Of a DNA stretch of 64,000 bases, positions 2,434-37,495 are shown piece after piece. The DNA comes from Patescibacteria group bacterium (GTDB taxonomy: Bacteria > Patescibacteriota > WWE3 > UBA101185 > 2-01-FULL-41-18). The position numbers and the translations under genes are program-made. The stretch spans positions 35,650-99,649 of the forward strand of contig JBBTST010000001.1 in NCBI GenBank assembly GCA_038064575.1. The letters are read 5' to 3'. Position 1 is the stretch's first letter. Every line of letters starts with the position of its first letter. Under the pieces are notes generated by a model, which saw only the letters and a list, made by a program, of their open reading frames with translations, was not told where the DNA came from and ran no database searches.

Positions 2434-3798
2434 TTAAAACTTATATGAAGCAAGCTTATCAGAAAACTTTTGGTACATATACTCTGAAGTATATTTGTCA
2501 AAAAATCTTTTTGCCTCCGCTTCCGACTCCTCTGCAAACATATGCATCACAACATTTGCAAGCTGGTCCGCACACATATACATTCTGCTAGGATTTGGGA
2601 GAATTGTGTCCTTCTGCAAAACAATAGCCCCGTTTTCAACACAATAATTAAAAAATACTCTGTAGCCTGTTAAATAGTTTTCAACCTGAGGTGTTTTCAA
2701 TCGTACAAAATAATCTGAGAAAGTTCTCATCAGCATTATATAAAGAATTGCCTCTAAATCCTTCTGGGTTATAACTCCTTTTACAAGCTGAAACCCACAA
2801 GCTTTGATCCCAACTATGCTTGAATGAAGCTCCATAACATAGTTAAACATGCCTTTTAGTCTTTCCCAACCACCTCTGTACTGAAATAAGGCCTCTGTAA
2901 CTTCATGTGCCATCACTAACCTTACTGCATTGGTCATCAAAAAGTCATCTTTAAAGGTTCTCTGAACGTCATTATCTATAAAATCTCTAAAAAGGGGCAA
3001 AAGCATCTCTCCATCCCTTTTTTGTATATTGTTTGTATAAACTACAATCTTTGTCCCAACCTCCTTTATCATCTCAATGTTTTCAGGATAATTGGTGGCT
3101 CTTGCCGGAAGGCCTGCATTTCTTCCTCCTATTGCAATGACATCATCAACCCTCACTTTAATTTTTTCAGGGGGAACGTTTTGTCTTGCCTTAGAACCAA
3201 AAGGCGGAAGCATGTTTCTAATAACCTCAACGTAATTGAATGGGTTAAATGTTTCCTTTTTACTGGTAAAAGTGAAATTGAAGTTATACGCTTTTTTAAG
3301 ACTAAACAATTGGTCCGCGTAGGAACCAAAGGGACCAATCATCAAATGCAAAAAGCTCCCATTCTCAACCCTAACCCAGGCTTTCTCAAGTTCTATATAA
3401 TCCCCATGAACAAGCGCATAGGAAGTTGTTTCAAGAAAAGCCTTAAAGCTCTCATTTAGTGTGAGTGAGGCAGCCTTTTGCAATAACTCTATTACCGGTT
3501 TTAAATCATTGGCATACTCTTCATGGTAGGGAACAGCATACAAAAAACCTGAAGAGTCTCTTTTAACAACCGTATAAGGATCAAGGATTTTGGGGTTTTT
3601 CTTGTTAGCTTCTTCAAGTTCTTTTTTTGTTGCATCTACGGGATAAAATGAGGCTCCCGGAAGACTGTCATCTTCTACCTGCTTTTCAAAAAGATTTCCA
3701 ATCTTCTTACCAGCTTCTTTTAAAATTTCAACAATTTGCAAATCTTCTGCTGAAAACCTGCTTTTATCAAAATCGTACTCAAGGTAATACTTAGTCAT
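2434..3798 (-). CDS. hypothetical protein (454 aa), possibly a degenerate metallopeptidase-like fold
   Basis: Long ORF in the greA-lysS operon. It overlaps the upstream greA-like stop by 8 nt. It has an 'AHEVTEAL' segment lacking the second His of HExxH. No family is confidently recognised. Confidence 0.5.
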   Translation of the reverse strand: MTKYYLEYDFDKSRFSAEDLQIVEILKEAGKKIGNLFEKQVEDDSLPGASFYPVDATKKELEEANKKNPKILDPYTVVKRDSSGFLYAVPYHEEYANDLKPVIELLQKAASLTLNESFKAFLETTSYALVHGDYIELEKAWVRVENGSFLHLMIGPFGSYADQLFSLKKAYNFNFTFTSKKETFNPFNYVEVIRNMLPPFGSKARQNVPPEKIKVRVDDVIAIGGRNAGLPARATNYPENIEMIKEVGTKIVVYTNNIQKRDGEMLLPLFRDFIDNDVQRTFKDDFLMTNAVRLVMAHEVTEALFQYRGGWERLKGMFNYVMELHSSIVGIKACGFQLVKGVITQKDLEAILYIMLMRTFSDYFVRLKTPQVENYLTGYRVFFNYCVENGAIVLQKDTILPNPSRMYMCADQLANVVMHMFAEESEAEAKRFFDKYTSEYMYQKFSDKLASYKF

Positions 3799-4255
3799 GC
3801 TTAATTTCTAAAATTTTATATTTTAATTTTACTACGGGAGTAGAGACTTCCACCACATCTCCAGCCTTGGTCCCAAGAATAGCTTGCCCTACAGGGGACT
3901 CATTAGAAATCAGGTTTTTAACGGGGTCTGCTTCAAAACTACCTACAATTTTAAAGGAGTCTACCTCACCATCAACCTCTACAATTACAATAGAACCAAC
4001 TCTGACAAATTTAGAATCTTCGTTTTCATCAATTACTTGGCTGCTTCTTAACAAATCCTCAAGTTCAGCTATTTTTTGTTCAATTTGATCACGTTTCTCA
4101 AGTTCAATATCATATTGAGTATTATCCTCATACCCACCCGAATCTATAGCTGTCTTAATATCCTGAGCAATCTGAGGCCTTGCCTTGTTCACCAGAAAGT
4201 CATGCTCTTCCCTGAGTTTCTTAAGACCTTCTTTTGTCAAATAAGATTTTGACAT
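3791..4255 (-). CDS. GreA-family transcript cleavage factor paralog with divergent acidic tip
   Basis: 154 aa with a GreA N-terminal coiled coil and C-terminal FKBP-like domain ('VRVGSIVIVEVDGE', 'SNESPVGQAILGTKAGDVVEV'). The tip reads 'GGYEDNTQY' instead of the canonical 'GDLSENAEY'. Confidence 0.75.
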   Translation of the reverse strand: MSKSYLTKEGLKKLREEHDFLVNKARPQIAQDIKTAIDSGGYEDNTQYDIELEKRDQIEQKIAELEDLLRSSQVIDENEDSKFVRVGSIVIVEVDGEVDSFKIVGSFEADPVKNLISNESPVGQAILGTKAGDVVEVSTPVVKLKYKILEIKHD

Positions 4256-4307: not shown

Positions 4308-4772
4308 TTACTCAATACTTAATACTGTATATGTAATTACACCCATAGGTGCTTCCACTTTGACCTTATCACCAATCTTTCTGCCAAGCAGGGCCAAACC
4401 CAAAGGCGACTCGTGAGAAATCTTTCTATCAAGAGGGTTAGCCTCAGGAGCTCCAACTATTTCAAAATACTCTTCACCCCCATCTACATGTACTCTTACC
4501 TTATTACCAACATTGATTTCACTTTTAACGGTATTAGAAATAACCTCAACATTTTTCACTATTTCCTCTATTTCTCTGATCCTGCTTTCAATAAAACCCT
4601 GTTCATCTCTTGCAGCATCATATTCAGCATTTTCTGAGATATCCCCCATTTCTCTGGCCGACTTTATACGCTCCGCTATAAGAGGTCTTTTAACCTCCAC
4701 AAGCTCTTTATATTCTTTTTTCAAGGACTCAAGTCCTTCTTTTGTAACGTAAACTTTGTCTTTTTTTATCAT
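4308..4772 (-). CDS. greA: transcription elongation factor GreA
   Basis: Canonical tip 'GDISENAEYDAAR' and C-terminal 'SHESPLGLALLGRKIGDKVKV'. The start was moved to the internal Met (MIKKDKVYVTKEGL) that matches the GreA N-terminus. Confidence 0.85.
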   Translation of the reverse strand: MIKKDKVYVTKEGLESLKKEYKELVEVKRPLIAERIKSAREMGDISENAEYDAARDEQGFIESRIREIEEIVKNVEVISNTVKSEINVGNKVRVHVDGGEEYFEIVGAPEANPLDRKISHESPLGLALLGRKIGDKVKVEAPMGVITYTVLSIE

Positions 4773-4973
4773 AAGCAACAAAAAAATTCCCCGTGCCAAA
4801 CATTAAAAGAAATCTATCTTTTTTTGCTTCAAGGGGGAATTTGCAATAGCCTTTACTAAACAACATGTGGAATCCTATCACTCACCAATCTATATGTCAA
4901 GCTCTATAAAGCTTGTCATGACAGCAAATATGCAGGGTGGAATCATGTTTAGGAGTATTATTTAAAAGCATTT

Positions 4974-5730: not shown

Positions 5731-8700
5731 ATGGAAAAAATCGATTTATCTATAATAATTCCCTCAAGAAACGAAGAAGGAAATGTAAAACCCTTATATG
5801 AAAGGTTGAATAAAGCTTTTAGAAACTCAAAAATTGAGTATGAAGTTTTGTATATTGTCGACAAATCTGTAGACAATACTTATGAGGAGGCCTCCAAATA
5901 CGAACAGGATGAGAGGTTTATTGTTCACAAAAAGAGGGGGAAACCGGGTAAAGGCTACTCCATTGTTGAAGGCTGTGAATATGCAAAAGGCGAATATGTA
6001 GCTTTCATTGATGCCGATCTTCAATATCCTCCTGAAGCCCTTCCTGAAATGTACAAGATTGCAAAAGAGCATGGAGTTGTAGTAGCCAAGAGAATAACCT
6101 ACAAATCAACATTTTTAAGAAGGTTGGGATCAAGATTTAACGCTTTTTTCTTTGGAAAAGTCTTACTGGGACTTGATTGTGATATCCAATCCGGATTGAA
6201 AGTGTTTAAAAGAGATGTTTTGCAACACCTTGACCTTTCTACCGTTGGTCCCTGGACTTTTGACATTCCTCTCTTACACACCTCTTCTGAACTTGGCTAC
6301 AAAATAGCAACTTATGAAATAGACTTTGTTGACAGGTACACCGGAAATTCAAAGGTGAGCTTTATTAAAACCGGTTTTGGTATAGCTTCCTGCGCACTAA
6401 AAACAAGACTTAAAAAAAGAGCGGTGTATGAAATAAAACCCCTAAACGGAGGGTCAATCGGGGCTGGCATGGTATTTAAAAAACATAGATTTGTAATCCA
6501 TTCAAAGCGTCCGCATCACAATTCCGCACTTCACACTTTTGTTTTCTGGCAAAAGCTTTTCATTTACTGTGTCATCACGGGAGCTTCAGTTGGTCTATAC
6601 ATTGACGCAAGAGTCACCGCTATCATGGTTTTTGCGGTTCTTAACACCTTATATTTTTGTGATGTCATATTTAACCTAATAGTCATTCTTAAAAGTCTGC
6701 ACTTCCCTCCCGAATTAGCCTTTTCAGCAGAAGAGATTAAAAATATAGATGAAAGTAAACTTCCAAAATATACTATTTTATGCCCTTTGTATAAAGAGGT
6801 TGAAATTCTTCCTCACTTTGTAGAAAACGTTTCAAAGCTTGATTATCCAAAAAACAAACTGGAGGTACTTTTGCTTCTTGAGGAGGATGACAAGGACACT
6901 CAGGAAATTGCAAGACTAATGCATCTTCCTAACTATTTTAGAATTGTAGTTGTTCCTCACTCCCAACCAAAGACCAAACCCAAGGCATGCAACTATGGTC
7001 TTCATGTTGCCTCAGGAGAGCTAACAGTAATTTATGACGCAGAAGATCAACCTGAACCATCACAACTCAAAAAGGCTTATCTGGGCTTTAAAAACCTTCC
7101 TGAAAAGGTTGTCTGCTTGCAGGCTAAGCTTAATTACTACAACCCAAGCCACAACTTATTGACTCGCCTTTTCACAGCAGAATACTCTTTATGGTTTGAC
7201 GTGGTGTTACCCGGATATCAATCCATAAACACTGCTATTCCTCTTGGCGGAACTTCCAACCACTTCAAAACCGAAATGTTAAAAAAACTGCATGGGTGGG
7301 ATGCTTTTAATGTAACAGAGGATTGCGATCTTGGTGTAAACCTTTTTAAGCAAGGATACAAAACTGCAATCATAGACTCAACCACCTTGGAAGAAGCAAA
7401 TAGTGATATCAAAAATTGGATTAGGCAAAGATCAAGGTGGATCAAGGGGTATATGCAAACCTACCTGGTTCACATGAGAAACCCGTTAGAACTCATAAAA
7501 ACTTATGGCTGGCACTCTTTCATCTTTCACCTGGTCATTGGCGCACGAATGTATTTCATGCTTATTAACCCAATCTTGTGGCTAATGACCTTTGCTTACT
7601 TTGCTTTGTATGCTCATGTAGGACCCACCATAGAAAGCCTATACCCACCGGCAGTTTTTTACATGGGGGCTTTTTCCTTGGTTGTTGGGAATTTTGTGGC
7701 TCTTTATAACTACATGATAGGCTGTGCCAAGAGAGGGCATTGGAATCTTATCAAATTTGTCTATTTAGTTCCCCTTTATTGGCTTTTGGCAAGCATAGGA
7801 GCAGTAATGGCCTTCTATCAGCTTTTGTTTAAACCTCATTTTTGGGAGAAGACCCATCATGGATTACACCTTAAAAAAGCCAGACAACTAATAAATCTAA
7901 GAGAAGTGCTAATCAACATGCAAGGAGTTTCCATCAGGGCTGCTAAATCCGGAAGTTTTCTGGTAGCGGCCGGTTTAATTACCAATTTTTTAAATTATGT
8001 ATATAATGCTTTTCTCAGTAGAAGGGTTGAAGTTGAAGATTTTGGGTTGATTAGTCTTGTAGGAAGCCTCTTCTTTATTGCAAGCATTCCTTTAAGTGCT
8101 CTTTCCAGAACTATAACATATAAGACCGCTTTCCTGCTTGGAAAGTTCAATCTAGCCCCAAAAACCTTCTGGTCTAACATTAGAAAAATAGCGTTTGTTT
8201 TTGGTATTGCCACAACAATAAGTTGGGTATTGTTAATACCTTACCTCATGAGATATTTTAATACAACCACACCGCTTCCTTTCTTATACTTCACTCCGGT
8301 CTGGGCAATAGGAATTTTGGCTGCCGTAGATAGCGGGTTTATAAGCGGAAATCAAAAATTTAACATTTCAGCAATCCTGATTATTTCAGAAGCTATTGCA
8401 AAACTTGCTTTCACCTTTTTAAGCTTATATCTTAACAACAACGATTTAATCTATGCAGCAATACCCGTTTCACTTGTGGTTCCTTTTGCAATCGGATGGC
8501 TGTACATAGTTAGACAAAAAGTGGACCAGTCTAAAATAAAAGCACTTAATGAAGCTTTATATTTTCCAAAAGACTTTTTTCTTACCTCACTATTCATTAA
8601 ATTTTCAACAGTTTCTTCACTAAGCCTTGATATTCTGATAGTAAAACATATTTTGGTTGCAAAAGACGCCGGATATTATGCCCTGATAGCCTTGGTGGGG

Positions 8701-10395: not shown

Positions 10396-11350
10396 AGCAA
10401 AAAAACTCAAAAATGAAAAGGCATTTGAAACCCTTGGTATCAAGGAGGTTTTTTTATACAAATTAAGAGATTTGATAAGTGGCCAAGCCGTCACAAAAGA
10501 ACCCCCCCATATACCTGATTTTAACCTTTTAGAGACAGTTAAACCGTTTGGGTCTGTAGGCAGCTATTTTATGGGAATATTTAGTAACACCAAAGAAGAG
10601 AAAGTTTTTGTAAAAACTTGGCGAGGAAACCACAAGGATTTAAACTACCTAACATTAATAAATGAAATAAGCTTCTATAAATTCTTTGAGAAAATGAGCA
10701 TTTCCCAAATAAAAACTCCAAAGATCAGGGCTATACATAATAAGTCATCAGAATTGTCAGTGGTATATGAATATATAGAAGGGAAAAAACTTGAAGAAAG
10801 CAGTACGGAACTAAAATTAAAAACTTATTGGGCAGTTATCAGCTTTCTTGACAACATTTCAGCAGATAAAAATTTGCTCATAAATTTTCCAAAAAGAACT
10901 TATTTTTCATATCTAGTTACTTTTTTACTAATACTTCCCTTAGCCCTAATAAATTATCCTTCAAAAGCGGCTAAGCTTATTAGTTCTGGAATTCTTTTTA
11001 CAAAGCTTATTACTATTAAAAATAATTTTCTTCCCTTAAGCTTATGCCATAGGGACTTAAATATGAGAAACATCCTAATTTCAAATAACACATCCTACCT
11101 CATAGACTTTCAATACACTCTCTTAACACTAAAAGAGTTTGAAATAGCCTCCACCATTAGAAGCCACATCAGGGAAAAGGAGTTTTTAGAAAAAATGCTA
11201 GCCAAAGTTAGAAACTCAAACAGTTTCAACACACAAATCTTAAGGCAAATGCTTATTTATTATGCAATTATGGGTCTTTGTGACAAACGCTTTAGAAAAG
11301 AAAGGGTAGAAGATTTTTTTGACTGTTTAAATTTGGCTTCTAACATATGA
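10385..11350 (+). CDS. protein-kinase-like fold phosphotransferase (Kdo/WaaP/APH-type catalytic loop)
   Basis: 'LCHRDLNMRNILISNNTSYLIDFQY' matches the HxDLxxxN catalytic loop and the (I/L)DF motif. It overlaps the upstream stop by 11 nt and the downstream start by ATGA. Confidence 0.55.
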   Translation: MNVRAKKLKNEKAFETLGIKEVFLYKLRDLISGQAVTKEPPHIPDFNLLETVKPFGSVGSYFMGIFSNTKEEKVFVKTWRGNHKDLNYLTLINEISFYKFFEKMSISQIKTPKIRAIHNKSSELSVVYEYIEGKKLEESSTELKLKTYWAVISFLDNISADKNLLINFPKRTYFSYLVTFLLILPLALINYPSKAAKLISSGILFTKLITIKNNFLPLSLCHRDLNMRNILISNNTSYLIDFQYTLLTLKEFEIASTIRSHIREKEFLEKMLAKVRNSNSFNTQILRQMLIYYAIMGLCDKRFRKERVEDFFDCLNLASNI

Positions 11351-14300
11351 TTAAAACTGTAACAATAGGCATACCAGCCTATAATGAAGAAAAAAACATT
11401 AAAACCCTTCTGGAATCCCTTTTAAACCAAAAGCAGGAGGGTTGGGACCTTGATAAGATAATAATTTATTCCGATGCAAGTACTGATAACACCAACTCTA
11501 TTGTTGGAGAATTCACAAATAAAAGCCTTGTCCTTATTAAAGGCGCAAAGAGAAAAGGGATGTGTTATGGCCAAAAAACAATAAGCAAAATCACAAATTC
11601 CGACTTTCTTGTTTTTATAAATGCTGATGTACTACCTCAAGATGAAAATCTCATTACTAATCTTATAAAAAATGCGGATGACAAAACAGGTGTAGTTGGA
11701 GGTAAAGTTGTCCCTGCCAAAGCAGAGGGCTTCATGGAAAAAGTTTATAAATTCAACCATGAACTCAAGACAGCCATTTATGAAGATCCAAAAATGAGCG
11801 GTTCAATTTATCTTTGCCATGGGAGAATCAAGTGCCTAACCAGACAAATGTATACCAAAACCAGATATGAAGATGTAACGGCAGAGGATGCCTTTTTATA
11901 TTTGGAGTGCAAAAGACTAGGCTTAAAGTTTGTGTATGCCAAGAATGCCACTGTCATTTTTAGATCCCCTACCCATCTAGGTGACTACTTTAAACAAAGT
12001 TCAAGATTCATTGCGGGAAAGAAGGATCTTTATAAGTACTTTGATAAAATTAAGGTTGATAAAAACTACTTAATTCCAAAATCTATACTTGTGAAAAATA
12101 TATTAAGAGGGTTTATCAGAAATCCAATTCTAACAAGCATTAATGCAGCAACGTTTGGATTAAGTAATTTAAAAGCTCTTTCTGGCAAAACCAGTAATAA
12201 TAAAATTTTGTGGGATATGTCTTACTCGTCAAAAAGACTTATGCTTTCCAACTTGGAGTCGCCAAAAAAACTCAAGCTTGATGTTATAACCAAGTTTTTT
12301 TATCCGGTTAACGCTGGCATTGAAATGAACACTTTAGAAACCTACTCATTGTTAAATAAGAGGGAATTTGATGTAACAATTCACACAACTAAAGATTCTC
12401 TAACTAAAAAAAATGAGTTCAGAGAGAGCGATAATATAAAAGGTTTACCTATCAAAAGATATAAAAGCGGTAAGGTAGGCTTTCTTCCTGCAATAGATCT
12501 TAATAAAACAGATATTTTATGCTTACACAATTTTAATATTCACCCAATGGTTTATTACTTATTCCTATCCTGGGTTAAAAAAGTTATAAGAAGAAGAAAC
12601 TACAAGGTAATTCTAACCCCTCATGGGGGTTTCACCCCTGAGTGGAGAGTTTTTCCTCTGCACATTAAAATCCCAAAATTGTTAATTCACCGGCTTATTG
12701 GTAACTATTTAATAAACAATGGGGCTGATGCAATCAGGGCTGTATCTGAATGGGAAAAAGAAGAGATGATAAAAGCGGGGGTGAGAAAAGATTTAATAGA
12801 GGTAATCTCAAACGGCCTAGAAAATGAGGCTTTTGAGGACATTGATCATCTTGCATCAACTAAAGTTAGAGAGGAAGTGGGAAGCCTTGGGAAATATATA
12901 ATTCAGGTAGGCAGAATATTTCCAATCAAAAACTATCAAACCACTATCAAAGCTCTTAAGCTTTTACCTGAAGATTTAAGCTTTGCGATTTTGGGTCCTA
13001 TTGGAGATGATAACTATTTCCAAAAGTTGAAAGACTTAACAAAAACTCTTGGAGTGGAACAAAGAGTAAAGTTTCTTGGAGAAGCAAGAGGAATTGATAA
13101 ATACTATCTAATCAAAAAGTCCATAGCCATGGTACACATGGCAATTTGGGAAAGCTTTTGCAATGTAGTTCATGAAGCTATGAGTCAGGGTGTTATCTGT
13201 CTTGTAGCTAAAAACACAGCATTACCCTATCTTATAAAGGATAAAATTAATGGCTTTTGCATACCAACCCGGGACAGTAAAAAATTGGCAGACAGAATTA
13301 ATTTCATCTTAGACAGCAAAAATACATTCGTTGTAGACAAAATTAAAAAAACAAACCTGGAAACTGCTAGAGATCATTCATGGTCAAACACCTCACATAA
13401 AATGGGTGAGCTCTATAATGATACTTTTCTTGGAAAAAGGACTCATCAGGGATCATTCCTATTCAGTTTTCTGTTTTTTTTGACTGTGGCTGTTATTCTA
13501 GCCTCCTCGGTTAGAGGTATTCATGGAAACCCTTCTATAAATGACCTGAATTCAAAAAAATGGACGGATAAGGGCCCTCTTGAACTGTCACCTGAAAGAG
13601 GAAGATTTGCCCTAACATATTCACTGGTGGAAGAAAAGTCCTTCACATTTTCAGTTCCGGTGGCAAGATTTGCGACTCCTGATCTAGGTTTCAAAAACGG
13701 TAAATATGTCTCTATTTTTGCCCCGGGTATATCAGCTCTTGTAATCCCAGGCTACCTTTTTGGAAGATATCTTGGTGCTTCTCAATATGGAACTTTTCTT
13801 ATTATAGCTTTTTTTTCACTGCTTAATGCTGTCTTGATTAAAAAAATAACCAGAGAGTTGGGGGGTGGAGAAAGCGCTTCTTTTATAGCTGCACTAACTT
13901 ACCTCTTTGCAACTCCGGCCTTTGCATATGCTGTAAGTTTATACCAACACCATGTATCAGTCTTTCTCATATTATCCTCAATTTATATTATCTTAACTAA
14001 AAAGAGCAACTGGTGGTTACTAGTAATTTGGTTTTTATTTACCTTATCAATACCTATAGATTATCCAAATCTATTTCTTATGCTTCCTATCATGCTTGTG
14101 GCAGCAGAAAGGATAATTTATATAAAAAAGGAAGAGAAAAAAATAAAGATTACTTTTAAGACACTTGCTTCTTTGACTTTAATTTCCGCGCTAATACCTG
14201 TGGTAATGTTTCTTTGGTACAACAAGATGACTTATGGAAACCCCTTCCAGTTGGCAGGGACCGTAAGCCACATTCAGGCTATAGATGCCTCAGGCAACCC

Positions 14301-14994
14301 AACACTTTCAAGCTCTTCAAATAGCCAACAAACTCTTGATCTTAACAGAAGAAGGTCAGCTCTTAATTTTTTTAAAACAAGACATGAATTAAATGGTTTT
14401 TATGTATTTTTCCTGAGTAAAGATAGGGGTTTACCTTATTACACACCTATCAGCCTGCTTGCTTTAATAGCTCTTCCTTTTTTTATAAAGCGCAACCAAA
14501 AGATTGGGGCTGTATTTTTTTCAATTGTGGCAATTAATATCCTTCTATACTCAATGAGAGGAGATGTATGGGGTGGCTGGGCATTTGGAGCAAGATATCT
14601 TATACCTTCTTATGCTATTCTTTCAATAGTTCTTGGTGTTTATCTTTCTGGGAACAGAAACAAATTTGTTCTACTTTTTGTAACTTGTCTTTTTGCTTAT
14701 TCTTCCTATGTAAATACAATAGGCGCCTTAACTTCAAATGCTATTCCTCCTCAGGTTGAGGTTCTGGCACTGGAAAAACTTTCCGGCAGGGAAGAAAAAT
14801 ACACATTTCATAGAAGTCTGGATTTACTAAAGGCTAATTCATCAAAATCTTATATATATAATTCTTATTTGAAAGATAAACTTTCCGCCTTAGAGTATTT
14901 TAAGATTGTGCTTTTCTCAATTTACACACTATTTACAATTGTGATGCTAAAACAACTTTTTAAAAAGAAAGATGTATATGAGAGGCTTAATTGA
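11347..14994 (+). CDS. 1215-aa fusion: GT2 + GT4 + C-terminal GT-C-like polytopic membrane glycosyltransferase domain
   Basis: N-terminus 'IGIPAYNEEKNIKTLLESLLNQ' and 'FINADVLPQDE' (GT2). The middle region 'HEAMSQGVICLVAKNTALPYLIKDKINGF' is GT4-like. The C-terminal ~500 aa have more than 10 TM spans with 'YVSIFAPGISALVIPGYLFGRYLG' (ArnT/PMT-like). Confidence 0.85.
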   Translation: MIKTVTIGIPAYNEEKNIKTLLESLLNQKQEGWDLDKIIIYSDASTDNTNSIVGEFTNKSLVLIKGAKRKGMCYGQKTISKITNSDFLVFINADVLPQDENLITNLIKNADDKTGVVGGKVVPAKAEGFMEKVYKFNHELKTAIYEDPKMSGSIYLCHGRIKCLTRQMYTKTRYEDVTAEDAFLYLECKRLGLKFVYAKNATVIFRSPTHLGDYFKQSSRFIAGKKDLYKYFDKIKVDKNYLIPKSILVKNILRGFIRNPILTSINAATFGLSNLKALSGKTSNNKILWDMSYSSKRLMLSNLESPKKLKLDVITKFFYPVNAGIEMNTLETYSLLNKREFDVTIHTTKDSLTKKNEFRESDNIKGLPIKRYKSGKVGFLPAIDLNKTDILCLHNFNIHPMVYYLFLSWVKKVIRRRNYKVILTPHGGFTPEWRVFPLHIKIPKLLIHRLIGNYLINNGADAIRAVSEWEKEEMIKAGVRKDLIEVISNGLENEAFEDIDHLASTKVREEVGSLGKYIIQVGRIFPIKNYQTTIKALKLLPEDLSFAILGPIGDDNYFQKLKDLTKTLGVEQRVKFLGEARGIDKYYLIKKSIAMVHMAIWESFCNVVHEAMSQGVICLVAKNTALPYLIKDKINGFCIPTRDSKKLADRINFILDSKNTFVVDKIKKTNLETARDHSWSNTSHKMGELYNDTFLGKRTHQGSFLFSFLFFLTVAVILASSVRGIHGNPSINDLNSKKWTDKGPLELSPERGRFALTYSLVEEKSFTFSVPVARFATPDLGFKNGKYVSIFAPGISALVIPGYLFGRYLGASQYGTFLIIAFFSLLNAVLIKKITRELGGGESASFIAALTYLFATPAFAYAVSLYQHHVSVFLILSSIYIILTKKSNWWLLVIWFLFTLSIPIDYPNLFLMLPIMLVAAERIIYIKKEEKKIKITFKTLASLTLISALIPVVMFLWYNKMTYGNPFQLAGTVSHIQAIDASGNPTLSSSSNSQQTLDLNRRRSALNFFKTRHELNGFYVFFLSKDRGLPYYTPISLLALIALPFFIKRNQKIGAVFFSIVAINILLYSMRGDVWGGWAFGARYLIPSYAILSIVLGVYLSGNRNKFVLLFVTCLFAYSSYVNTIGALTSNAIPPQVEVLALEKLSGREEKYTFHRSLDLLKANSSKSYIYNSYLKDKLSALEYFKIVLFSIYTLFTIVMLKQLFKKKDVYERLN

Positions 14995-17961: not shown

Positions 17962-18630
17962 ATGGAAAAAAGCAGGATTTTTTTGTCACTTGCTATAACT
18001 TTATACATAGCTTTCAACTCTCAACTAGTAGGGCTTAATGCTTATGCCTCAGAAAATAACTCGGAAAACACCTCTATAACTAAACCTAATTTCCCGTCAT
18101 GTGAAGATCCGGAAGGCCAGCTTAAGGCTTCTTATCCCAATGGAACACATGGGGTTCCCGGGGATACAACCACATACACAGGAAGAGACACAGTTTACAC
18201 CCTTTCTGACAACACTCTCATTCAATGTCTTTGTACCGACCAAGGAAAAGGAATCCAAACTAATTGGTGGAAAGTATCAAGCCTGACTGAAAATGAAATC
18301 AATCAGCTAAAAGCGGAAGGTTGGATTTTTGTCCCAAACGGTTCTGCTTGGGGCTTGGAAGAAACTACTTATATGGCTAAAAATGAAAGCTTTTCTTGCG
18401 GTGATCGGGAAGGAGATGATGAGGACAATGATGAAGACAAAAGCTCGCAAGATAAAAATGACAAATATGATAACTCTGACCAGGGTCAAATCCTTGCAAC
18501 AGCTACCAAAGGAATTGGAGGGATATTAGGGCTTGCCGCCACAGGAAATGCTTCTGTTATTTACCTATTCATAACAGTCGGAGCATTAGCGCTTGTACTT
18601 TCAATTCTTCTAAATAGAAAAGATTCTTAG
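17962..18630 (+). CDS. sortase-substrate surface protein with C-terminal LAATG sorting signal
   Basis: A signal peptide and a Cys-containing domain are followed by an acidic D/E/N-rich linker. The C-terminus is 'LAATGNAS' + a hydrophobic span + 'NRKDS'. Confidence 0.6.
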   Translation: MEKSRIFLSLAITLYIAFNSQLVGLNAYASENNSENTSITKPNFPSCEDPEGQLKASYPNGTHGVPGDTTTYTGRDTVYTLSDNTLIQCLCTDQGKGIQTNWWKVSSLTENEINQLKAEGWIFVPNGSAWGLEETTYMAKNESFSCGDREGDDEDNDEDKSSQDKNDKYDNSDQGQILATATKGIGGILGLAATGNASVIYLFITVGALALVLSILLNRKDS

Positions 18631-18642
18631 AGGTGAAAATCT

Positions 18643-19203
18643 ATGAAAAAAGTATTCTCCAATATTTTCCTAGTAATAGCAGTCATTTGTTTTTTATCAG
18701 CCACCTTTCTCATCTACAAAAAATATCAAAATAAAAACGTGTATGTAGATCAAAAAACTGTTCAAGAGCTGTATTCAGGGCAAGCAATTTATAAAAAACC
18801 GGTTTTTATTAAAATTAGAACACTTGATATAAGCCTTCCCATCATTGAATCTTCAATTAAGAAAGGGGTTTGGGAAACAAATGACAAAGGCGTTTCTTAC
18901 TTACTCAATTCGCCCCTACCCGGAGAATCAGGAAATAGCATACTATACGGACACAACTTTCCGGGCCTTTTGGGAAAGCTTAAAAATATTCAAAGAGACA
19001 ATGAAATTGAAATTTTATTTAATAACGGAGAGGTAAAAAGATTTGTGGTTAAGGCTACCAGTACCACAGGATCAAAAAGTTTACACATACTAAAACAAAC
19101 CCAGGACACAAGAATTACTATTTACACTTGTACAGGCTTTATGGATTCTAAAAGGTTTGTAGTAACAGCAGTTCCTAAAAAAGACACTCAAGTTTTGAAT
19201 TGA
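18643..19203 (+). CDS. sortase (class E-like)
   Basis: N-terminal TM anchor, catalytic His in 'LYGHNFPG', 'ITIYTCTG' (TLxTC) and a downstream Arg ('KRFVVTAV'). GAGGTGA RBS at 18628-18634. Confidence 0.8.
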   Translation: MKKVFSNIFLVIAVICFLSATFLIYKKYQNKNVYVDQKTVQELYSGQAIYKKPVFIKIRTLDISLPIIESSIKKGVWETNDKGVSYLLNSPLPGESGNSILYGHNFPGLLGKLKNIQRDNEIEILFNNGEVKRFVVKATSTTGSKSLHILKQTQDTRITIYTCTGFMDSKRFVVTAVPKKDTQVLN

Positions 19204-22016: not shown

Positions 22017-24146
22017 TTAAAGTTTAATTACAGAAAGAATATTACTAAAATTATCTGTAAACAAACTGCTATCTTTTATCACTTTTCTCCCTTGCGCTTT
22101 TTTAATTTCAGCACTTGAAATAAAATCTTCATCTTTGGTAAGCAATACCCAAGATCCAGAAGTGTGAGGAATATGTGGCAAACCTTCAATACCAGTTTCT
22201 ACCTTACTTTCAAGGTAAACAAATTTAAAGTCTATAAACTCCGCTACTTTTTTGAGGGCTGGAGAAAGATCTAAATGTCTATTTGATATATGAGCAACAA
22301 TTATCCCGTTACTTCCCAAATGTTTTTTATAAATAGTGAATGCTTCAGAGGTCAAAAGATGCATTGGAATAGCATCGTCATTAAAAGCATCCAAAACTAA
22401 AATATCAAAGTTTTCCTCTCCCAATACAAGCTCCTCTTCAAGGCTTTTTCTACCATCTCCCATTTTGATCTCAACTTTGGAATTACCAGCTTCACAATCT
22501 TTAATAAATGAAAAGTATTTATTAGAAACGTATTCCATCACAGGGTTTATTTCATAAAATTTTAAGAAATCGCCATTTTGACAAAACCTTGCTATACTCC
22601 CGGCTCCTAAACCTAATACGCCAATTCTTAGAGGTTTGCCTTTCAATCTTTTAGAGTGATACTTAGAAGCTAAACCTATCCCACTTGTATCGGTGTAATA
22701 ATAAATTGCATTCTTCTTATAGTTTTGGTCCTCAATTTGTATCCCGTGTAAAGTAGCTCCGTGAACAACAGCTATAGCATGCAAATTTTTGTTAATTACT
22801 CTTTTTTCTACTCTTGTTACGCCATAAAAGTTTCTCTTAACAAATAAAAGTCCTGAAAAAACATCTCTTTTAATTCTGTAAGGAAGTATCAGAAAGACAG
22901 CCGCAATGGGATATAAAAGAAGGATTGCGAATCTTCTATGATTTGCAAAGGCCTTTCTTAACCAAGAGTTTTCATCTCTCAGTATATATAGCATATATAG
23001 ATAAATCACAACAATTGCTATTGGAAATTCCCACAAACCTCTAAAGAGCAATGGGGCCACAACACTTGCAAACAAAGAGCCTAAAAAACTGCCAAAAGAA
23101 ATATACAGATAAAAAGCACCAACTTGAGAATTATCTCTAGGTCTTTTTTCAAAAAGCTTAATATGAAGAACCATTAAAGATGACAGCAGAAGTAAACCTA
23201 TAACTACTGTTTTAACTACTATATTTATACCAATTATCAAAAAATAAAAAGCTGCGGTTACATAAAGTATTTTTGTAAAAGCAGTCAAATAAATAAGGCT
23301 TTCTTTCCTGAAAGCAAAAGCAAAAGAAATAAGGTAAAGAGCAAGCGGAAAAAGCCACAAAAGAGGGAACGGTGCAATTTCAAGAGTTAAAACACTGGTA
23401 GTTGATAGAAGCATAAGTGAGGATAAAAAGGATATAGCCACCCATTTAAACTTCTGGTGCCCCTCCTCTTTTTTCACCCCATCCTGTTCAAACTCAAAAG
23501 ATTGATGCATAAAATCTTCATTTTTATTCTTGAACTCAATACCAAGCAGAAATAACATGAGTAAAACAAAAAAAACTAACAAAACACCCCATATATTAAT
23601 CTGGGAATTAAGGGTAACGAATGGTTCGATTAAAAAAGGGTAAGCAAGGATAGCTGCAAAAGAGCCAAAATTGGAGACACCATAAATCCAATAAAAATCC
23701 CTTTTTTTAAACTTATATAAATTTTGTAAAAATACGGACGTAGTTGACAGTAGAAAGAAAGGAATACCCACCCCAATAAGCAGGTATCTAACCATCTCAA
23801 AGACTTGTAAAATAAAGCTTTCATTTGTTGAAATGTCAGAGGGTCTTAACACCCCAGTCAGAGGAAAATAGGTTGAGAAGAAAGTTAAATAAAAAACACC
23901 AAGAATTAAACCAATGTGTACTATTTTTTGCTTATTTAAATTTATTTTTCCTAACATGAAAGAATAAAAGTAACCAATAAGTAAGATGGACTGGAAAAAA
24001 AGCATTGAAGTTGTCCAAACATGGTTACTACCTCCAAAACTTGGCAGTAACAGTTTATTAACTGCAGGTTCAATAAAAAATAATAAAAACGCACTTAAGA
24101 AAGCTATTAGTCCATAAAGAATGCTTATAAAATCAAGCCTCATCAA
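22017..24146 (-). CDS. polytopic membrane protein fused to spermidine/spermine-synthase-like domain
   Basis: More than 10 N-terminal TM segments. The C-terminal domain has 'RIGVLGLGAGSIARF' and 'ILVLDAFNDDAIPMHLLTSEAF'. Confidence 0.7.
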   Translation of the reverse strand: MMRLDFISILYGLIAFLSAFLLFFIEPAVNKLLLPSFGGSNHVWTTSMLFFQSILLIGYFYSFMLGKINLNKQKIVHIGLILGVFYLTFFSTYFPLTGVLRPSDISTNESFILQVFEMVRYLLIGVGIPFFLLSTTSVFLQNLYKFKKRDFYWIYGVSNFGSFAAILAYPFLIEPFVTLNSQINIWGVLLVFFVLLMLFLLGIEFKNKNEDFMHQSFEFEQDGVKKEEGHQKFKWVAISFLSSLMLLSTTSVLTLEIAPFPLLWLFPLALYLISFAFAFRKESLIYLTAFTKILYVTAAFYFLIIGINIVVKTVVIGLLLLSSLMVLHIKLFEKRPRDNSQVGAFYLYISFGSFLGSLFASVVAPLLFRGLWEFPIAIVVIYLYMLYILRDENSWLRKAFANHRRFAILLLYPIAAVFLILPYRIKRDVFSGLLFVKRNFYGVTRVEKRVINKNLHAIAVVHGATLHGIQIEDQNYKKNAIYYYTDTSGIGLASKYHSKRLKGKPLRIGVLGLGAGSIARFCQNGDFLKFYEINPVMEYVSNKYFSFIKDCEAGNSKVEIKMGDGRKSLEEELVLGEENFDILVLDAFNDDAIPMHLLTSEAFTIYKKHLGSNGIIVAHISNRHLDLSPALKKVAEFIDFKFVYLESKVETGIEGLPHIPHTSGSWVLLTKDEDFISSAEIKKAQGRKVIKDSSLFTDNFSNILSVIKL

Positions 24147-29896: not shown

Positions 29897-30835
29897 CTAC
29901 TTTATACCCTCCACGTGAGTTATATTGGCATTGACTTGCGCTGAAGGGACAGTTGTTACCGGAGTCAGTGGTTTTGGGATAAGCTTTTTGGGCTTTGGGT
30001 AAAAAAGATCTTTTCTAAAAATCCTTAGGGAAACCCATACCACCACCCAACAGGCAGAGGCTGTATAAATAAGCCTCATCCACAGCTCGTCGCTGTCTGT
30101 TCCTGCTAAAAAACCATGTACCAAAAACAAAACATAGGTCAAAAAGCTCAAATAATGAATGCTTCTCCAAAACTTGATATTTATAATTTTGTTTCTCAAT
30201 TCAGATGTCACTATCAAACAAATAATCAAATAAAAGGCAGAAATGCCAAGTCCTACCGGAACAGATATATTTACTCCAAGACCCGAATAAAGACTTCTTT
30301 GAAATTTCCCCGGAAGAATAAGCTCAGGAAGAGTTAATTTTACATAATCATCCAGGAATAAAGACCCAATGTGTAGAAAAAGCATCAAAAAAGCTGCCCA
30401 TGCCAGCGTTCTATGTATTTCAACGGTATTGAGCTTTGCCACTTTAACAAATTTAAGAACAATTTTAGAAGTCATCACAAGTCCAAAAGTGACTACAAAA
30501 GTGAACAAAATAAAAGAAACTATTCCTGCAATTCTTGAAATGTACCAGTAAATTGGGGGGTTATCAGGTAGAATTTTGCGCCCCTCTTTTTTAGCTTCTT
30601 CACTGGGTGAGCTTATTTTGTTTAGGGGATCAGTTCCATTGAGGGCTTCAACCCCATCTGAAAAGCTATCTTGATCTGTATCAAATTTTAGTGGGTCTGT
30701 TCTATATAATCCCGTTTCTGACTCATCAGACAACCCATCAGAATCGCTATCTTTAATTTCTGCATGAGCAAAGCCTGCAAAAAACAGAAACAATAAACCT
30801 AAGGCAAGAGTAACTTTAACTTTCATTGAAAACAT
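29897..30835 (-). CDS. membrane protein: signal peptide + thrombospondin-type-3-like Ca-binding repeats + ferric-reductase-like bis-heme TM domain
   Basis: The N-terminus has 'DSDSDGLSDESE', 'DTDQDSFSDGVE' and 'NGTDPLN'. The C-terminal 6-TM region has His pairs spaced 14 and 13 residues apart ('EIHRTLAW...LFLHIGS' and 'RSIHYLSF...LVHGFL'). Confidence 0.55.
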   Translation of the reverse strand: MFSMKVKVTLALGLLFLFFAGFAHAEIKDSDSDGLSDESETGLYRTDPLKFDTDQDSFSDGVEALNGTDPLNKISSPSEEAKKEGRKILPDNPPIYWYISRIAGIVSFILFTFVVTFGLVMTSKIVLKFVKVAKLNTVEIHRTLAWAAFLMLFLHIGSLFLDDYVKLTLPELILPGKFQRSLYSGLGVNISVPVGLGISAFYLIICLIVTSELRNKIINIKFWRSIHYLSFLTYVLFLVHGFLAGTDSDELWMRLIYTASACWVVVWVSLRIFRKDLFYPKPKKLIPKPLTPVTTVPSAQVNANITHVEGIK

Positions 30836-31784
30836 ATTTTTCCATTTGTGCCGTATTATAAACTTTCAGGGCTTTATCCACAAACAACGCTGCTATGTTA
30901 TTCATTCTACTAAAGTTAGCCGCTATATCTAAGCCCATGATTAATAACGCTTTAGCGTAAATATCAGCCTCAACAGCAGAATTTGCTACAACAGTTACAG
31001 AAATAAGGCTATTTTCAACACTTTTGTTAACTTTAGGGTCAATAAGATGGTTTTTAAGCTCTCCTTTATACTGCCAAAATCTCTTATTTACTCCTGATGT
31101 GGCAATCCCTTTATCACTAACTGTTAAAATTTCAAGGTTTTCTTCAGCTTTTTTGGGATGTTCAACACCGATTGCCCAGAACTCATACTTCTCCTCAATA
31201 TTTGTTCCTGAAACAAACATATCACCACCCGCATCAACCACAAAATTTGCATATTTTTGCTTTAAGTTATCTGAAACTTTCTGGACAATAAAACCTTTCC
31301 CTATTCCTCCAAGATCAATCTGCAAGTCTTTTGGCTTATAAACTACTTTTTGTGAAGAGTCCAGAATTTTTAAATCTTCAAGGTTTGAAAGGTATTTATT
31401 CTTAACTTTATCACTATTAAAGTTTGGGTCTACAAATCCTTGATTTTTACTTACCTGGTAACCTTCATCTTTAAGTGTGTTCAAAAGACTGATATTAAAA
31501 ATGCCATTTGTTTTTTTGTAGTATGCTAAAGCCAGAAAAAGCACATCAAAAAGTTCGTTTGAAAGTGTAAGATCCCCTGAAGAATTATTAAAACTTTCAA
31601 GTTCGTTATGTTCAATAAACCTACTAAACCTTTTCTCAAAAGAGCGCATTTCATCAAATGCTTCTTCTATGTCTTTTGTAATTTCTTCTTTTGAAAAATG
31701 CCAGTCTGCAATTTTAATAAACACATCTGTAGCCATTATTTGGTTTAGTAGTTCCTTCTCAACAACAACTAGGTTTTGTGTCAT
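30816..31784 (-). CDS. apbE: ApbE-family FAD:protein FMN transferase
   Basis: 'LQIDLGGIGKGFIVQKV' is the DLGGIAKGY-type motif. It is ApbE-length and ends with a C-terminal 'TSGVNKRFWQY'. It overlaps the downstream gene by 20 nt. Confidence 0.8.
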   Translation of the reverse strand: MTQNLVVVEKELLNQIMATDVFIKIADWHFSKEEITKDIEEAFDEMRSFEKRFSRFIEHNELESFNNSSGDLTLSNELFDVLFLALAYYKKTNGIFNISLLNTLKDEGYQVSKNQGFVDPNFNSDKVKNKYLSNLEDLKILDSSQKVVYKPKDLQIDLGGIGKGFIVQKVSDNLKQKYANFVVDAGGDMFVSGTNIEEKYEFWAIGVEHPKKAEENLEILTVSDKGIATSGVNKRFWQYKGELKNHLIDPKVNKSVENSLISVTVVANSAVEADIYAKALLIMGLDIAANFSRMNNIAALFVDKALKVYNTAQMEKYVFNES

Positions 31785-35816: not shown

Positions 35817-35917
35817 TCTGAGAAAGATCACTATGCCCAACCAAGAAAGACGTGCACTCGTGTTATCATTAGGTAAACAAGTTAACTTTATGATTACACT
35901 TGAAAGTAAACAACCAT

Positions 35918-37495
35918 ATGAAAAAAATTATTTATATTCTAATACCAATAATCTTAATATTAACAATTTTAAGCATTTCGCTATTTAGACAGGAAAAGCT
36001 TAGCCAAAGCGAAATTAGTAGTCTTACACCTGCAAAACAAACATCAGTTATTGAACTTGAAAATGGCGCCACCCTAAGTCTTACAGCATCAATCGTTAAG
36101 AAAAATATAAATGGCGTAGACGTCAAAATGCTTGCCTACAATGGAGAAATACCGGGTCCTTTAATTAAGACTAAAAAAGAATCTGAGATAACTATAAACT
36201 TTACAAATAATATTGATATGAAGTCTACAATTCACTCTCATGGGGTAAGACTTGATAATAAGTTTGATGGAGTTGCAGATCTAACCCAAGAGCCTGTTAA
36301 AATTGGGGACACTTTTGTATACAAAATCAAGTTTCCTGATGAAGGTATGTATTGGTACCATCCACACATAAGAGAAGATTATCAGCAAGAATTAGGGTTG
36401 TATGGCAATTATCTTGTTTCATCTGATGATGCCAGTTATTGGAACCCGGTAAACCAAGAGATACCGTTATTTTTAGATGACATTCAAATGGAAAATGGTC
36501 AAATCGCTTCATTTAGTAGTGAGAAGGTTGATCACGCTTTTATGGGTAGATTTGGAAACGTTATGTTAGTTAATGGAGAAACTAATTATTCTCTTAAAGC
36601 CAAGAGGGGTGAAGTTGTTAGATTTTATTTAACTAATTCAGCCAATACCCGAACTTTCCATTTTATGATCCTCGGCGTTAAATTAAAGCTTGTTGGCGGA
36701 GATAACGGAAGATTTGAAAAAGAAGAGTTAGTTGATGCAGTGATTGTTAGTCCATCAGAACGATATATTGTGGAAGCGTTGTTTGATAAATCAGGAAGCT
36801 TTGAGATACAAAATAAGACTCCGGAAAAAGCCTACAAACTAGGTTCTGTTACAGTTTTAGACCAAGTTACTGAATTGTCGTATGCGGATAAATTTAATAG
36901 CTTAAGGATTAATAGTGATTTACAAGCAGAAATTGCCGGAATAACAAGTAACTTGAGCGCTATTCCACAAAAAAACCTGACTATATCTATCAATCCCATG
37001 GGAATGGGCAGCGGGACGATGAATAATGGCAGTAATAATATGATGGGCGGAGATCACATGATGCATGGCGGTGCTATGATGCAAAATAACGATAATCAAA
37101 AAATAGAGTGGGATGATGACATGGGTATGATGAACAAAAATGCAACAGCAGATGCAATCAAATGGAAACTAATTGACCAAGCAACAGGCAAAGAAAATAT
37201 GGATATAAACTGGACATTTAAGAAAGGTGATTTAGTTCGCATTAAGTTGTTTAATGATCCAAATTCCCTGCATCCAATGCAACATCCTGTGCATATTCAC
37301 GGACAAAGATTCTTAGTTCTAAGTACAAATAACGTTGAAAATACAAATAAGGTATGGAAAGATACAGCCTTGATACAAACAGGGGATACGGTTGAGTTTT
37401 TGGTGCAAATGGATAACATAGGGGATTGGCTTATTCACTGCCACATACCAGAACACATGGAATCTGGTATGATGTCAAAATTTGAAGTTATTTAA
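35918..37495 (+). CDS. multicopper oxidase with Met-rich insert
   Basis: Cu-site motifs 'HSHGVRL', 'WYHPHIRED', 'HPVHIHGQRF' and 'HCHIPEHMESGMM'. A Met/Gly/Asn-rich segment lies between the His clusters. The start was set at the ATG (MKKIIYIL) rather than the upstream TTG. Confidence 0.85.
   Translation: MKKIIYILIPIILILTILSISLFRQEKLSQSEISSLTPAKQTSVIELENGATLSLTASIVKKNINGVDVKMLAYNGEIPGPLIKTKKESEITINFTNNIDMKSTIHSHGVRLDNKFDGVADLTQEPVKIGDTFVYKIKFPDEGMYWYHPHIREDYQQELGLYGNYLVSSDDASYWNPVNQEIPLFLDDIQMENGQIASFSSEKVDHAFMGRFGNVMLVNGETNYSLKAKRGEVVRFYLTNSANTRTFHFMILGVKLKLVGGDNGRFEKEELVDAVIVSPSERYIVEALFDKSGSFEIQNKTPEKAYKLGSVTVLDQVTELSYADKFNSLRINSDLQAEIAGITSNLSAIPQKNLTISINPMGMGSGTMNNGSNNMMGGDHMMHGGAMMQNNDNQKIEWDDDMGMMNKNATADAIKWKLIDQATGKENMDINWTFKKGDLVRIKLFNDPNSLHPMQHPVHIHGQRFLVLSTNNVENTNKVWKDTALIQTGDTVEFLVQMDNIGDWLIHCHIPEHMESGMMSKFEVI

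Follow-up and report, generated by a model that had tools for sequence, protein, structure and literature searches.

A GT2-GT4-GT-C fusion protein in a conserved, putative surface-glycan locus of Patescibacteria

The stretch of DNA analyzed here, referred to as the window, comprises 64,000 nucleotides (nt) of contig JBBTST010000001.1 (positions 35,650 to 99,649, forward strand) of a WWE3 patescibacterial assembly (GCA_038064575.1) and has a G+C content of approximately 35%. Between window positions 5731 and 17872, it contains five tightly packed genes on the + strand, one of which encodes a protein of 1215 amino acids (aa) that combines glycosyltransferase (GT) modules of three types, GT2, GT4, and GT-C, in a single polypeptide (Table 1). 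A triple fusion of this kind had been proposed in an initial annotation of the window, and all four peptides quoted there were located in the open reading frame (ORF), at aa 7-18, 92-100, 609-623, and 787-810. The start codon of this ORF and the stop codon of the gene before it overlap in the sequence ATGA, and at the other end, the final 23 nt are shared with the downstream ORF. The latter overlap is 17 nt when counted from M3 of the downstream ORF, where the public annotation places the start (position 14978), giving a protein of 544 aa.

Table 1. Genes, modules, and subregions of the glycosyltransferase locus, in window positions
Feature	Position	Strand	Basis
Multi-module GT protein, 1554 aa	5731..10395	+	Pfam/NCBIfam/PDB searches
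APH/choline-kinase-like phosphotransferase, 321 aa	10385..11350	+	Pfam PF01636, E 9e-7
GT2-GT4-GT-C fusion, complete ORF, 1215 aa	11347..14994	+	Single ATG-to-stop reading frame
GT2 (GT-A fold) module, aa 1-300, soluble	11347..12246	+	Pfam PF00535
GT4 (GT-B fold) module, aa 310-692	12274..13422	+	Pfam PF13439 and PF00534, EX7E
GT-C fold membrane domain (family A), aa 697-1215	13435..14991	+	AF2 and Foldseek
First predicted extracytoplasmic loop of GT-C A, aa 722-811	13510..13779	+	AF2 helices, conservation
Second GT-C fold protein (family B), 546 aa	14972..16612	+	AF2 and Foldseek
Secreted protein p413, 413 aa	16631..17872	+	Signal peptide or N-terminal anchor; conserved locus partner
Secreted protein p222, 222 aa, LAxTG sorting signal	17962..18630	+	Acidic stalk, then LAATG, transmembrane helix, and basic tail
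Sortase, last conserved gene of block	18643..19203	+	Pfam PF04203, E 9e-18

The two N-terminal modules of the 1215-aa protein belong to the families to which they had initially been assigned. Glycos_transf_2 (PF00535) matched aa 6-135 with 70.7 bits, well above its gathering cut-off of 23.3 bits (E = 1.8e-19), and the module contains a DXD-like nucleotide-sugar/metal site, NAD(V) at aa 92-95, as well as YSDASTD at aa 41-47. Its closest solved structures were the GT2 enzyme 6yv7 and chondroitin synthase. Likewise, both Rossmann halves of the central GT4 module scored above their gathering cut-offs (Glyco_transf_4 [PF13439], aa 324-491, 42.7 bits; Glycos_transf_1 [PF00534], aa 516-659, 94.8 bits versus a cut-off of 26.4 bits), and the EX7E motif of this retaining family was found as ESFCNVVHE at aa 602-610. 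The closest PDB structures of the GT4 module were Alr3699 (4xso), MshA, and BshA.

The C-terminal domain (GT-C A; its homologues are referred to as family A) did not match any Pfam model over aa 690-1215, even at E ≤ 10, and a profile built from 36 family A sequences yielded zero matches to PDB sequences at the same threshold. Among these 36 members, a single one matched any GT-C Pfam model (Glyco_transf_22). The only curated model touching the domain was NCBIfam NF047440, which aligned to aa 782-967 over model positions 72-248 of 460 (E = 1e-17), with a score of 63.9 bits that falls short of the 200-bit cut-off for membership. An AlphaFold2 (AF2) model of the domain was built on the 36-homologue alignment (pLDDT, 89.5; pTM, 0.91) and compared with the PDB by using Foldseek. 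The top 13 matches were all of the GT-C fold (probability of ~1.0; TM-scores of 0.36-0.47), with ArnT (5ezm) as the best match (E = 1.9e-4; TM-score, 0.47), and further matches included AglB, AftB, Pmt4, STT3, ALG9, DPY19, EmbC, PIG-U, and PimE. In the structure-based search that the initial annotation had suggested for aa 700-1215, GT-C enzymes were thus recovered, while transporters matched the model poorly (TM-scores of 0.10-0.20; probability of ≤0.15). This makes it highly improbable that the domain serves to transport or flip a lipid-linked product, a role that might be considered for a polytopic domain fused to cytoplasmic glycosyltransferases in a locus where no dedicated small flippase was found.

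On the basis of the modeled structure, the C-terminal domain is assigned to the GT-C fold superfamily as a polytopic member with a cytoplasmic N terminus. It had initially been described as ArnT/PMT-like, and the resemblance to ArnT holds for the fold but not for sequence membership: by sequence searches, GT-C A belongs to a family that lacks a sequence model and lies outside both the ArnT (GT83) and PMT (GT39) families. Because neither Pfam nor the PDB profile search produced a match, the ArnT/PMT call was beyond the reach of sequence models, and it was the structural comparison that confirmed the GT-C assignment.

AF2 helices together with the positive-inside rule predict 12 membrane crossings for GT-C A and place both of its ends on the cytoplasmic side. 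The N terminus, separated from the GT4 module by a linker of approximately 9 residues ahead of the first transmembrane helix, is placed inside because the fused nucleotide-sugar-dependent modules must be cytoplasmic. The C terminus is placed inside because a cytoplasmic C terminus is independently required by P0291, a natural single-chain fusion (1065 aa; outside the window) of family A with family B, the family of the protein encoded by the next gene. The elements predicted on the cytoplasmic side are short, K/R-rich loops (KKITRE, TKKSN, the IKKEEKKIK hairpin, KRNQK, and GNRNK) and the KKKD tail. The first outward-predicted loop, which spans from the first transmembrane helix to the next membrane crossing, contains the acidic residues E746 (positions 13582-13584; E57 of the domain) and D779 (positions 13681-13683; D90 of the domain), in line with the initial expectation of a catalytic Asp/Glu in such a loop. 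In an alignment of 201 homologues that are 29-53% identical to the query, E746 was conserved in 97% of the sequences and D779 in 99%. Approximately 35 positions of the domain were conserved at this level (≥97%), and other such residues in outward loops are Y861, Q867, H868, D905, N908, R1027, D1073, R1083, and Y1084. Indeed, all conserved polar residues of GT-C A were found in outward-predicted loops. Such a distribution is consistent with a GT-C active site facing outward, in which some of these residues may have catalytic roles.

At least 12 contigs, which come from two assembly sources (ENA and Logan) and several samples of Hainich groundwater, encode the identical 1215-aa protein (P0001), and NCBI annotates this protein as a glycosyltransferase of a Patescibacteria metagenome-assembled genome (MAG). 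Because of this recurrence across independent samples and assemblers, an assembly or frameshift artefact that merged two genes of the real genome is very unlikely and, in our judgment, barely credible. Although a single indel would be sufficient to fuse the corresponding separate genes of a relative (locus L004), which overlap by 17 nt, fusions of GT4 with GT-C have also arisen independently (P0002 and P0252), and no Shine-Dalgarno sequence is present ahead of Met686. An internal translation start at Met686 was rejected on the latter ground. A search of 5.8 billion clustered proteins returned no second sequence that spans all three modules, and the best match to aa 1-1200 among 1.84 billion representatives at 50% identity was P0252 (927 aa), which covers GT4 and GT-C only. 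Judged by these sequence collections, the GT2-GT4-GT-C fusion is real and nearly unique.

The likely route to this fusion is preserved in related genomes. L004 represents the unfused state, with a GT2-GT4 gene (694 aa) ahead of a separate GT-C A gene (518 aa), while L003 encodes a GT4-GT-C A fusion. This comparison of gene arrangements shows that the 1215-aa protein arose when genes that are neighbors with translational overlap in relatives were joined. A range of other module arrangements was also found. GT-C A is the C-terminal partner in GT4-GT-C (P0002, P0252), GT2-GT-C (P0254, P0258), APH-GT-C (P0283), APH-CE4-GT-C (P0261; L037, 6999-10379; L045, 8255-11521), GT2-CE4-GT-C (L061, 8201-11518), PIG-L-APH-GT-C (P0267), and PIG-L-GNAT-GT-C (P0394) proteins, and cytoplasmic modules were joined as GT2-GT4 (P0008), GT4-GT2 (P0006), and GT4-PIG-L-GT2 (P0003, P0009). 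The partners fused to GT-C A in other genomes (GT2, GT4, APH, PIG-L, CE4 deacetylase, and GNAT) are all cytoplasmic enzymes, and they include the APH type that is encoded directly upstream of the fusion gene in the window. In 74 of 80 species-level homologues, GT-C A is a stand-alone protein of 486-590 aa. The latter observation bears on whether the domain could be a noncatalytic anchor or scaffold that merely tethers GT2 and GT4, comparable to PIG-U, a noncatalytic GT-C fold protein. PIG-U is among the fold matches, and no curated GT-C sequence model matches the domain; however, the stand-alone homologues would have nothing to anchor, and the outward loops hold His as well as acidic and basic residues among the highly conserved positions, a pattern typical of active sites. 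We therefore regard a purely structural role as very unlikely.

The overlapping downstream gene had been predicted to encode a second GT-C-like protein, and structure prediction bore this out. No Pfam match (also at E ≤ 10) or NCBIfam match was obtained for the 546-aa sequence, and a 36-sequence family B profile had zero matches to PDB chains. The AF2 model (pLDDT, 75) nevertheless matched GT-C enzymes, with STT3, PglB, and AglB as the best fold matches in Foldseek (TM-scores of 0.46-0.51) and ArnT and AftB matching almost equally. Family B is highly conserved (mean column identity of 53% in the 36-sequence alignment) and features an invariant YNDARSH directly after the first transmembrane helix and a C-terminal alpha/beta domain. 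The WWDxG motif was absent from both the 546-aa sequence and the invariant columns of the alignment, which does not place the protein in the GT66 family of oligosaccharyltransferases (OSTs). Families A and B were not detectably homologous by hhalign (probability of 1.5%). The weak match to NF047440 that 15 of the 36 family B members share with GT-C A suggests distant paralogy, and the P0291 fusion suggests that GT-C A and GT-C B act as a complex.

A Dpm1-like module had been attributed to the gene upstream of the fusion. Such a module exists but is located two genes upstream, at the N terminus of the 1554-aa protein, whereas the adjacent gene is APH/kinase-like. The closest PDB structures of aa 1-250 of the 1554-aa protein were dolichol-phosphate mannose synthase (DPMS; 5mlz; E = 2e-15), GtrB (5ekp; E = 2.5e-14), and ArnC (9hwj; E = 1.4e-11), and the NCBIfam ArnC model matched below its cut-off (E = 5e-16). 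The locus thus contains a GT2 of the DPMS/GtrB/ArnC polyprenyl-phosphate type, which by sequence similarity is a candidate for the donor-supplying enzyme. The second GT2 of the 1554-aa protein matches BcsA, carries the motifs DAED (436), TED (529), and QRSRW (566), and looks like a processive synthase. Distant Patescibacteria share 60-73% identity in this synthase module, which is followed by approximately 10 further transmembrane helices and a C-terminal GT4 module (aa 1183-1526).

Family A relatives were found in at least 277 genomes in a scan of one genome per species. Properly labelled hosts were Levy-, Gottesman-, Woese-, Roizman-, Curtiss-, Shapiro-, and Daviesbacteria, Dojkabacteria, WWE3, and a few Parcubacteria. 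Many TPA_asm MAG records with this locus (L010-L089) are titled "uncultured Gammaproteobacteria" or "Pseudomonadales" and are probably mislabelled. Partner genes on the same strand were counted in 80 fetched species-level Patescibacteria loci, mostly from Microgenomates. Family A was followed by GT-C B in all 72 of 72 loci, with a start within 300 nt in 64 of these, and family B was followed by p413 in 66 of 69 loci. Upstream, the giant multi-GT protein was represented by its GT4 module in 51 of 55 loci and by its BcsA-like module in 45 of 55. A sortase was present in 41 of 80 loci and p222 in 35 of 63 by strict or 44 of 80 by relaxed counting, and 45 of 80 loci had a CE4 or PIG-L deacetylase no more than 10 kb away. 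The block is ordered as giant multi-GT protein, variable cytoplasmic cassette, GT-C A, GT-C B, p413, LAxTG protein, and sortase. Because the other flanking genes of the window were present in only 0-2 of the 80 loci, the block is considered to end at the sortase. A search for PIG-L or CE4 deacetylases across the window found none, and de-N-acetylation similar to that of the glycosylphosphatidylinositol (GPI) or Arn pathways can therefore not be claimed for this genome. Literature searches returned no description of this locus or of GT-C families A and B.

The secreted protein p413 had no Pfam, NCBIfam, or informative PDB sequence match and is suspected, by analogy with synthase operons, to be a glycan hydrolase. 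Homologues of p222 end in LGLA[STA]TG[ND] followed by a transmembrane helix and a K/R tail, which constitutes an LAxTG sorting signal, and have stalks that are either S/T/G-rich or acidic, making them possible glycosylation or attachment targets. These features raise the question of whether the GT-C pair could act as an OST- or ligase-like oligosaccharyl- or polymer-transferase that moves a polyprenyl-diphosphate-linked oligosaccharide, put together by the GT2 and GT4 modules and then flipped, en bloc to protein, plausibly to the LAxTG stalk protein. Co-conservation of p222 and sortase with the GT-C pair, the S/T/G-rich stalks, and the OST-type best fold matches of family B would agree with such a transfer, as would the end-to-end alignment of the GT4 module with the NCBIfam model of Agl16, an archaeal lipid-linked N-glycan glycosyltransferase (E = 1e-57 over the full model length). 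However, with 195 bits against a cut-off of 575 bits, the Agl16 match falls far short of membership, the motif by which OST catalytic subunits are defined (WWDxG) is missing from family B, and family B resembles ArnT and AftB nearly as well. Furthermore, the DPMS-like GT2 in the locus favors monosaccharide-phosphate donors, and p222 was detected in little more than half of the loci. Overall, en bloc transfer appears unlikely.

We instead favor, with moderate confidence, a reading of the 1215-aa protein as a trifunctional glycosyltransferase belonging to a surface-glycan pathway conserved in Patescibacteria; in this pathway, cytoplasmic assembly would be linked to outward transfer by GT-C. On the cytoplasmic side, the GT2 and GT4 modules would draw on nucleotide sugars for building or extending a lipid-linked intermediate, either a polyprenyl-(di)phosphate glycan or a glycolipid, which would then be flipped across the membrane. 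Outside the membrane, the fused GT-C A and its obligate neighbor GT-C B would add further sugars. The use of lipid-phosphate-linked donors by GT-C A is inferred from the DPMS/GtrB/ArnC-like GT2 in the operon, and these donors would be polyprenyl-phosphate sugars made by that module of the 1554-aa protein. Either the polymer produced by the BcsA-like module or an envelope glycan anchored to lipid or protein would probably serve as the acceptor. The fusion might hold the cytoplasmic steps at the membrane, beside the enzyme that finishes the product. The coupling of cytoplasmic and extracytoplasmic glycosyl transfer that had been proposed initially is compatible with the predicted topology, and its donors and acceptors would be those proposed here.

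Several observations weigh against this reading. The similarity of GT-C A to known GT-C folds is moderate (best TM-score of 0.47) and accompanied by no match to a curated GT-C sequence family, and the candidate catalytic residues were assigned from conservation and topology only. The GT2 module of the fusion differs from the DPMS type, so that it may act in either donor or acceptor synthesis. In addition, the flipping step has no clear candidate: a small GtrA/ArnEF- or GtcA-type flippase was not found in the locus, the match of aa 739-1010 of the 1554-aa protein to Polysacc_synt (MOP) was subthreshold (21.6 bits versus a cut-off of 28.2 bits), and a PDB sequence search of this MOP-like region gave no support for a flippase identity. 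Finally, the triple fusion is limited to one population and may have no special mechanistic meaning.

A broader reading extends the surface-glycan model to an undescribed, Patescibacteria-wide surface-glycoconjugate system that would consist of a multi-GT synthase, a swappable tailoring cassette, and an obligate pair of new GT-C families. In such a system, the cassette enzymes (GT2, GT4, kinase, PIG-L/CE4 deacetylase, and GNAT) would act on lipid-linked sugars before flipping, in an Arn-like manner, and the GT-C pair would finish the glycan outside, possibly on or near the sortase-anchored LAxTG stalk protein. In this full form, we consider the proposal rather doubtful. If true, it would represent a new envelope-building route in reduced, host-dependent bacteria. 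The envelope of Patescibacteria (CPR, short for candidate phyla radiation) is almost uncharacterized, though it mediates host attachment. Here, the variously fused relatives serve as a natural Rosetta stone, tying two unannotated GT-C families to cytoplasmic enzymes, a polyprenyl-phosphate-sugar synthase, and a sortase substrate, and their comparison yields a concrete, testable pathway model along with candidate catalytic residues. The conserved setting weighs more than the fusion; the triple fusion by itself is a lineage-specific curiosity that establishes no new principle.

Beyond the glycosyltransferase block, the window encodes tandem GreA/GreB-family transcription elongation factors (3791-4255 and 4308-4799, − strand), a three-domain multicopper oxidase (35900-37495, + strand), and an ApbE flavin transferase adjoining a ferric-reductase-like membrane protein (29897-31784, − strand). 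The multicopper oxidase and the ApbE/ferric-reductase-like redox enzymes are unusual for a patescibacterium. Two further ORFs had no Pfam match, one of 454 aa (2434-3798, − strand) and one of 709 aa (22017-24146, − strand), the latter of which adjoins a thioredoxin/DsbD pair and an FkbM methyltransferase.

Parts of the locus resemble several known systems. The STT3, PglB, and AglB enzymes share with the 546-aa protein the fold, an Asp directly after the first transmembrane helix, and a C-terminal soluble domain, but differ from it in the WWDxG motif and in the lack of any PDB sequence-profile match. The LA_3751/LA_3752 putative glycosyltransferase family of Leptospira, described by NF047440, partially matches GT-C A, and its name points to two adjacent genes, as in the present locus; however, the score is far below the cut-off, and NF047440 is itself uncharacterized, with no paper found in a literature search.

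In the mycobacterial pathway for phosphatidylinositol mannosides (PIM), lipomannan (LM), and lipoarabinomannan (LAM), the GT4 enzymes PimA and PimB' act inside, followed by the GT-C enzymes PimE, Mpt, Emb, and Aft outside, with donors provided by the GT2 enzyme Ppm1, and Ppm1 of M. tuberculosis is itself a GT2 fused to a membrane domain. The proposed succession of cytoplasmic GT4 steps and outside GT-C steps is similar, and AftB, EmbC, and PimE are among the fold matches of GT-C A. In contrast, the GT-C proteins described here do not belong to the sequence families GT87, GT53, or GT89, and we know of no member of the PIM/LM/LAM pathway that combines GT2, GT4, and GT-C in one chain. In the GtrB/GtrA/Gtr* and CsbB/GtcA/YfhO systems, a cytoplasmic GT2 charges polyprenyl phosphate, the product is flipped, and a GT-C enzyme decorates a surface polymer, which corresponds to the logic proposed here. 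However, no small GtrA/GtcA-type flippase accompanies the present genes, the components are merged into giant polypeptides, and the locus additionally encodes a BcsA-like synthase, a sortase plus its substrate, and one protein each of the kinase-like and the secreted type.

The ArnC/ArnD/ArnT pathway, which modifies lipid A with aminoarabinose, has parallels in the locus, namely, a DPMS-like GT2 that would make a polyprenyl-phosphate sugar, with ArnC among the structures closest to the N terminus of the 1554-aa protein, and a GT-C enzyme predicted to act outside the membrane, with ArnT as the best fold match of the fused domain. In addition, relatives carry a CE4 deacetylase that is joined directly to GT-C A. 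As CE4 is the family of ArnD, the recurrent fusions of GT-C A with deacetylases mirror, by analogy, the sequence of ArnC, ArnD, and ArnT. Unlike in the Arn pathway, GT-C A is not a member of the ArnT sequence family, the window encodes no deacetylase, the GT-C enzymes occur in tandem with GT2 and GT4 modules fused on, and, to our knowledge, lipid A is not expected in Patescibacteria. Overall, all three folds and the inside-then-outside logic were known already, while the novelty lies in the GT2-GT4-GT-C chain, the two GT-C families without a sequence model, and the conserved locus to which they belong.

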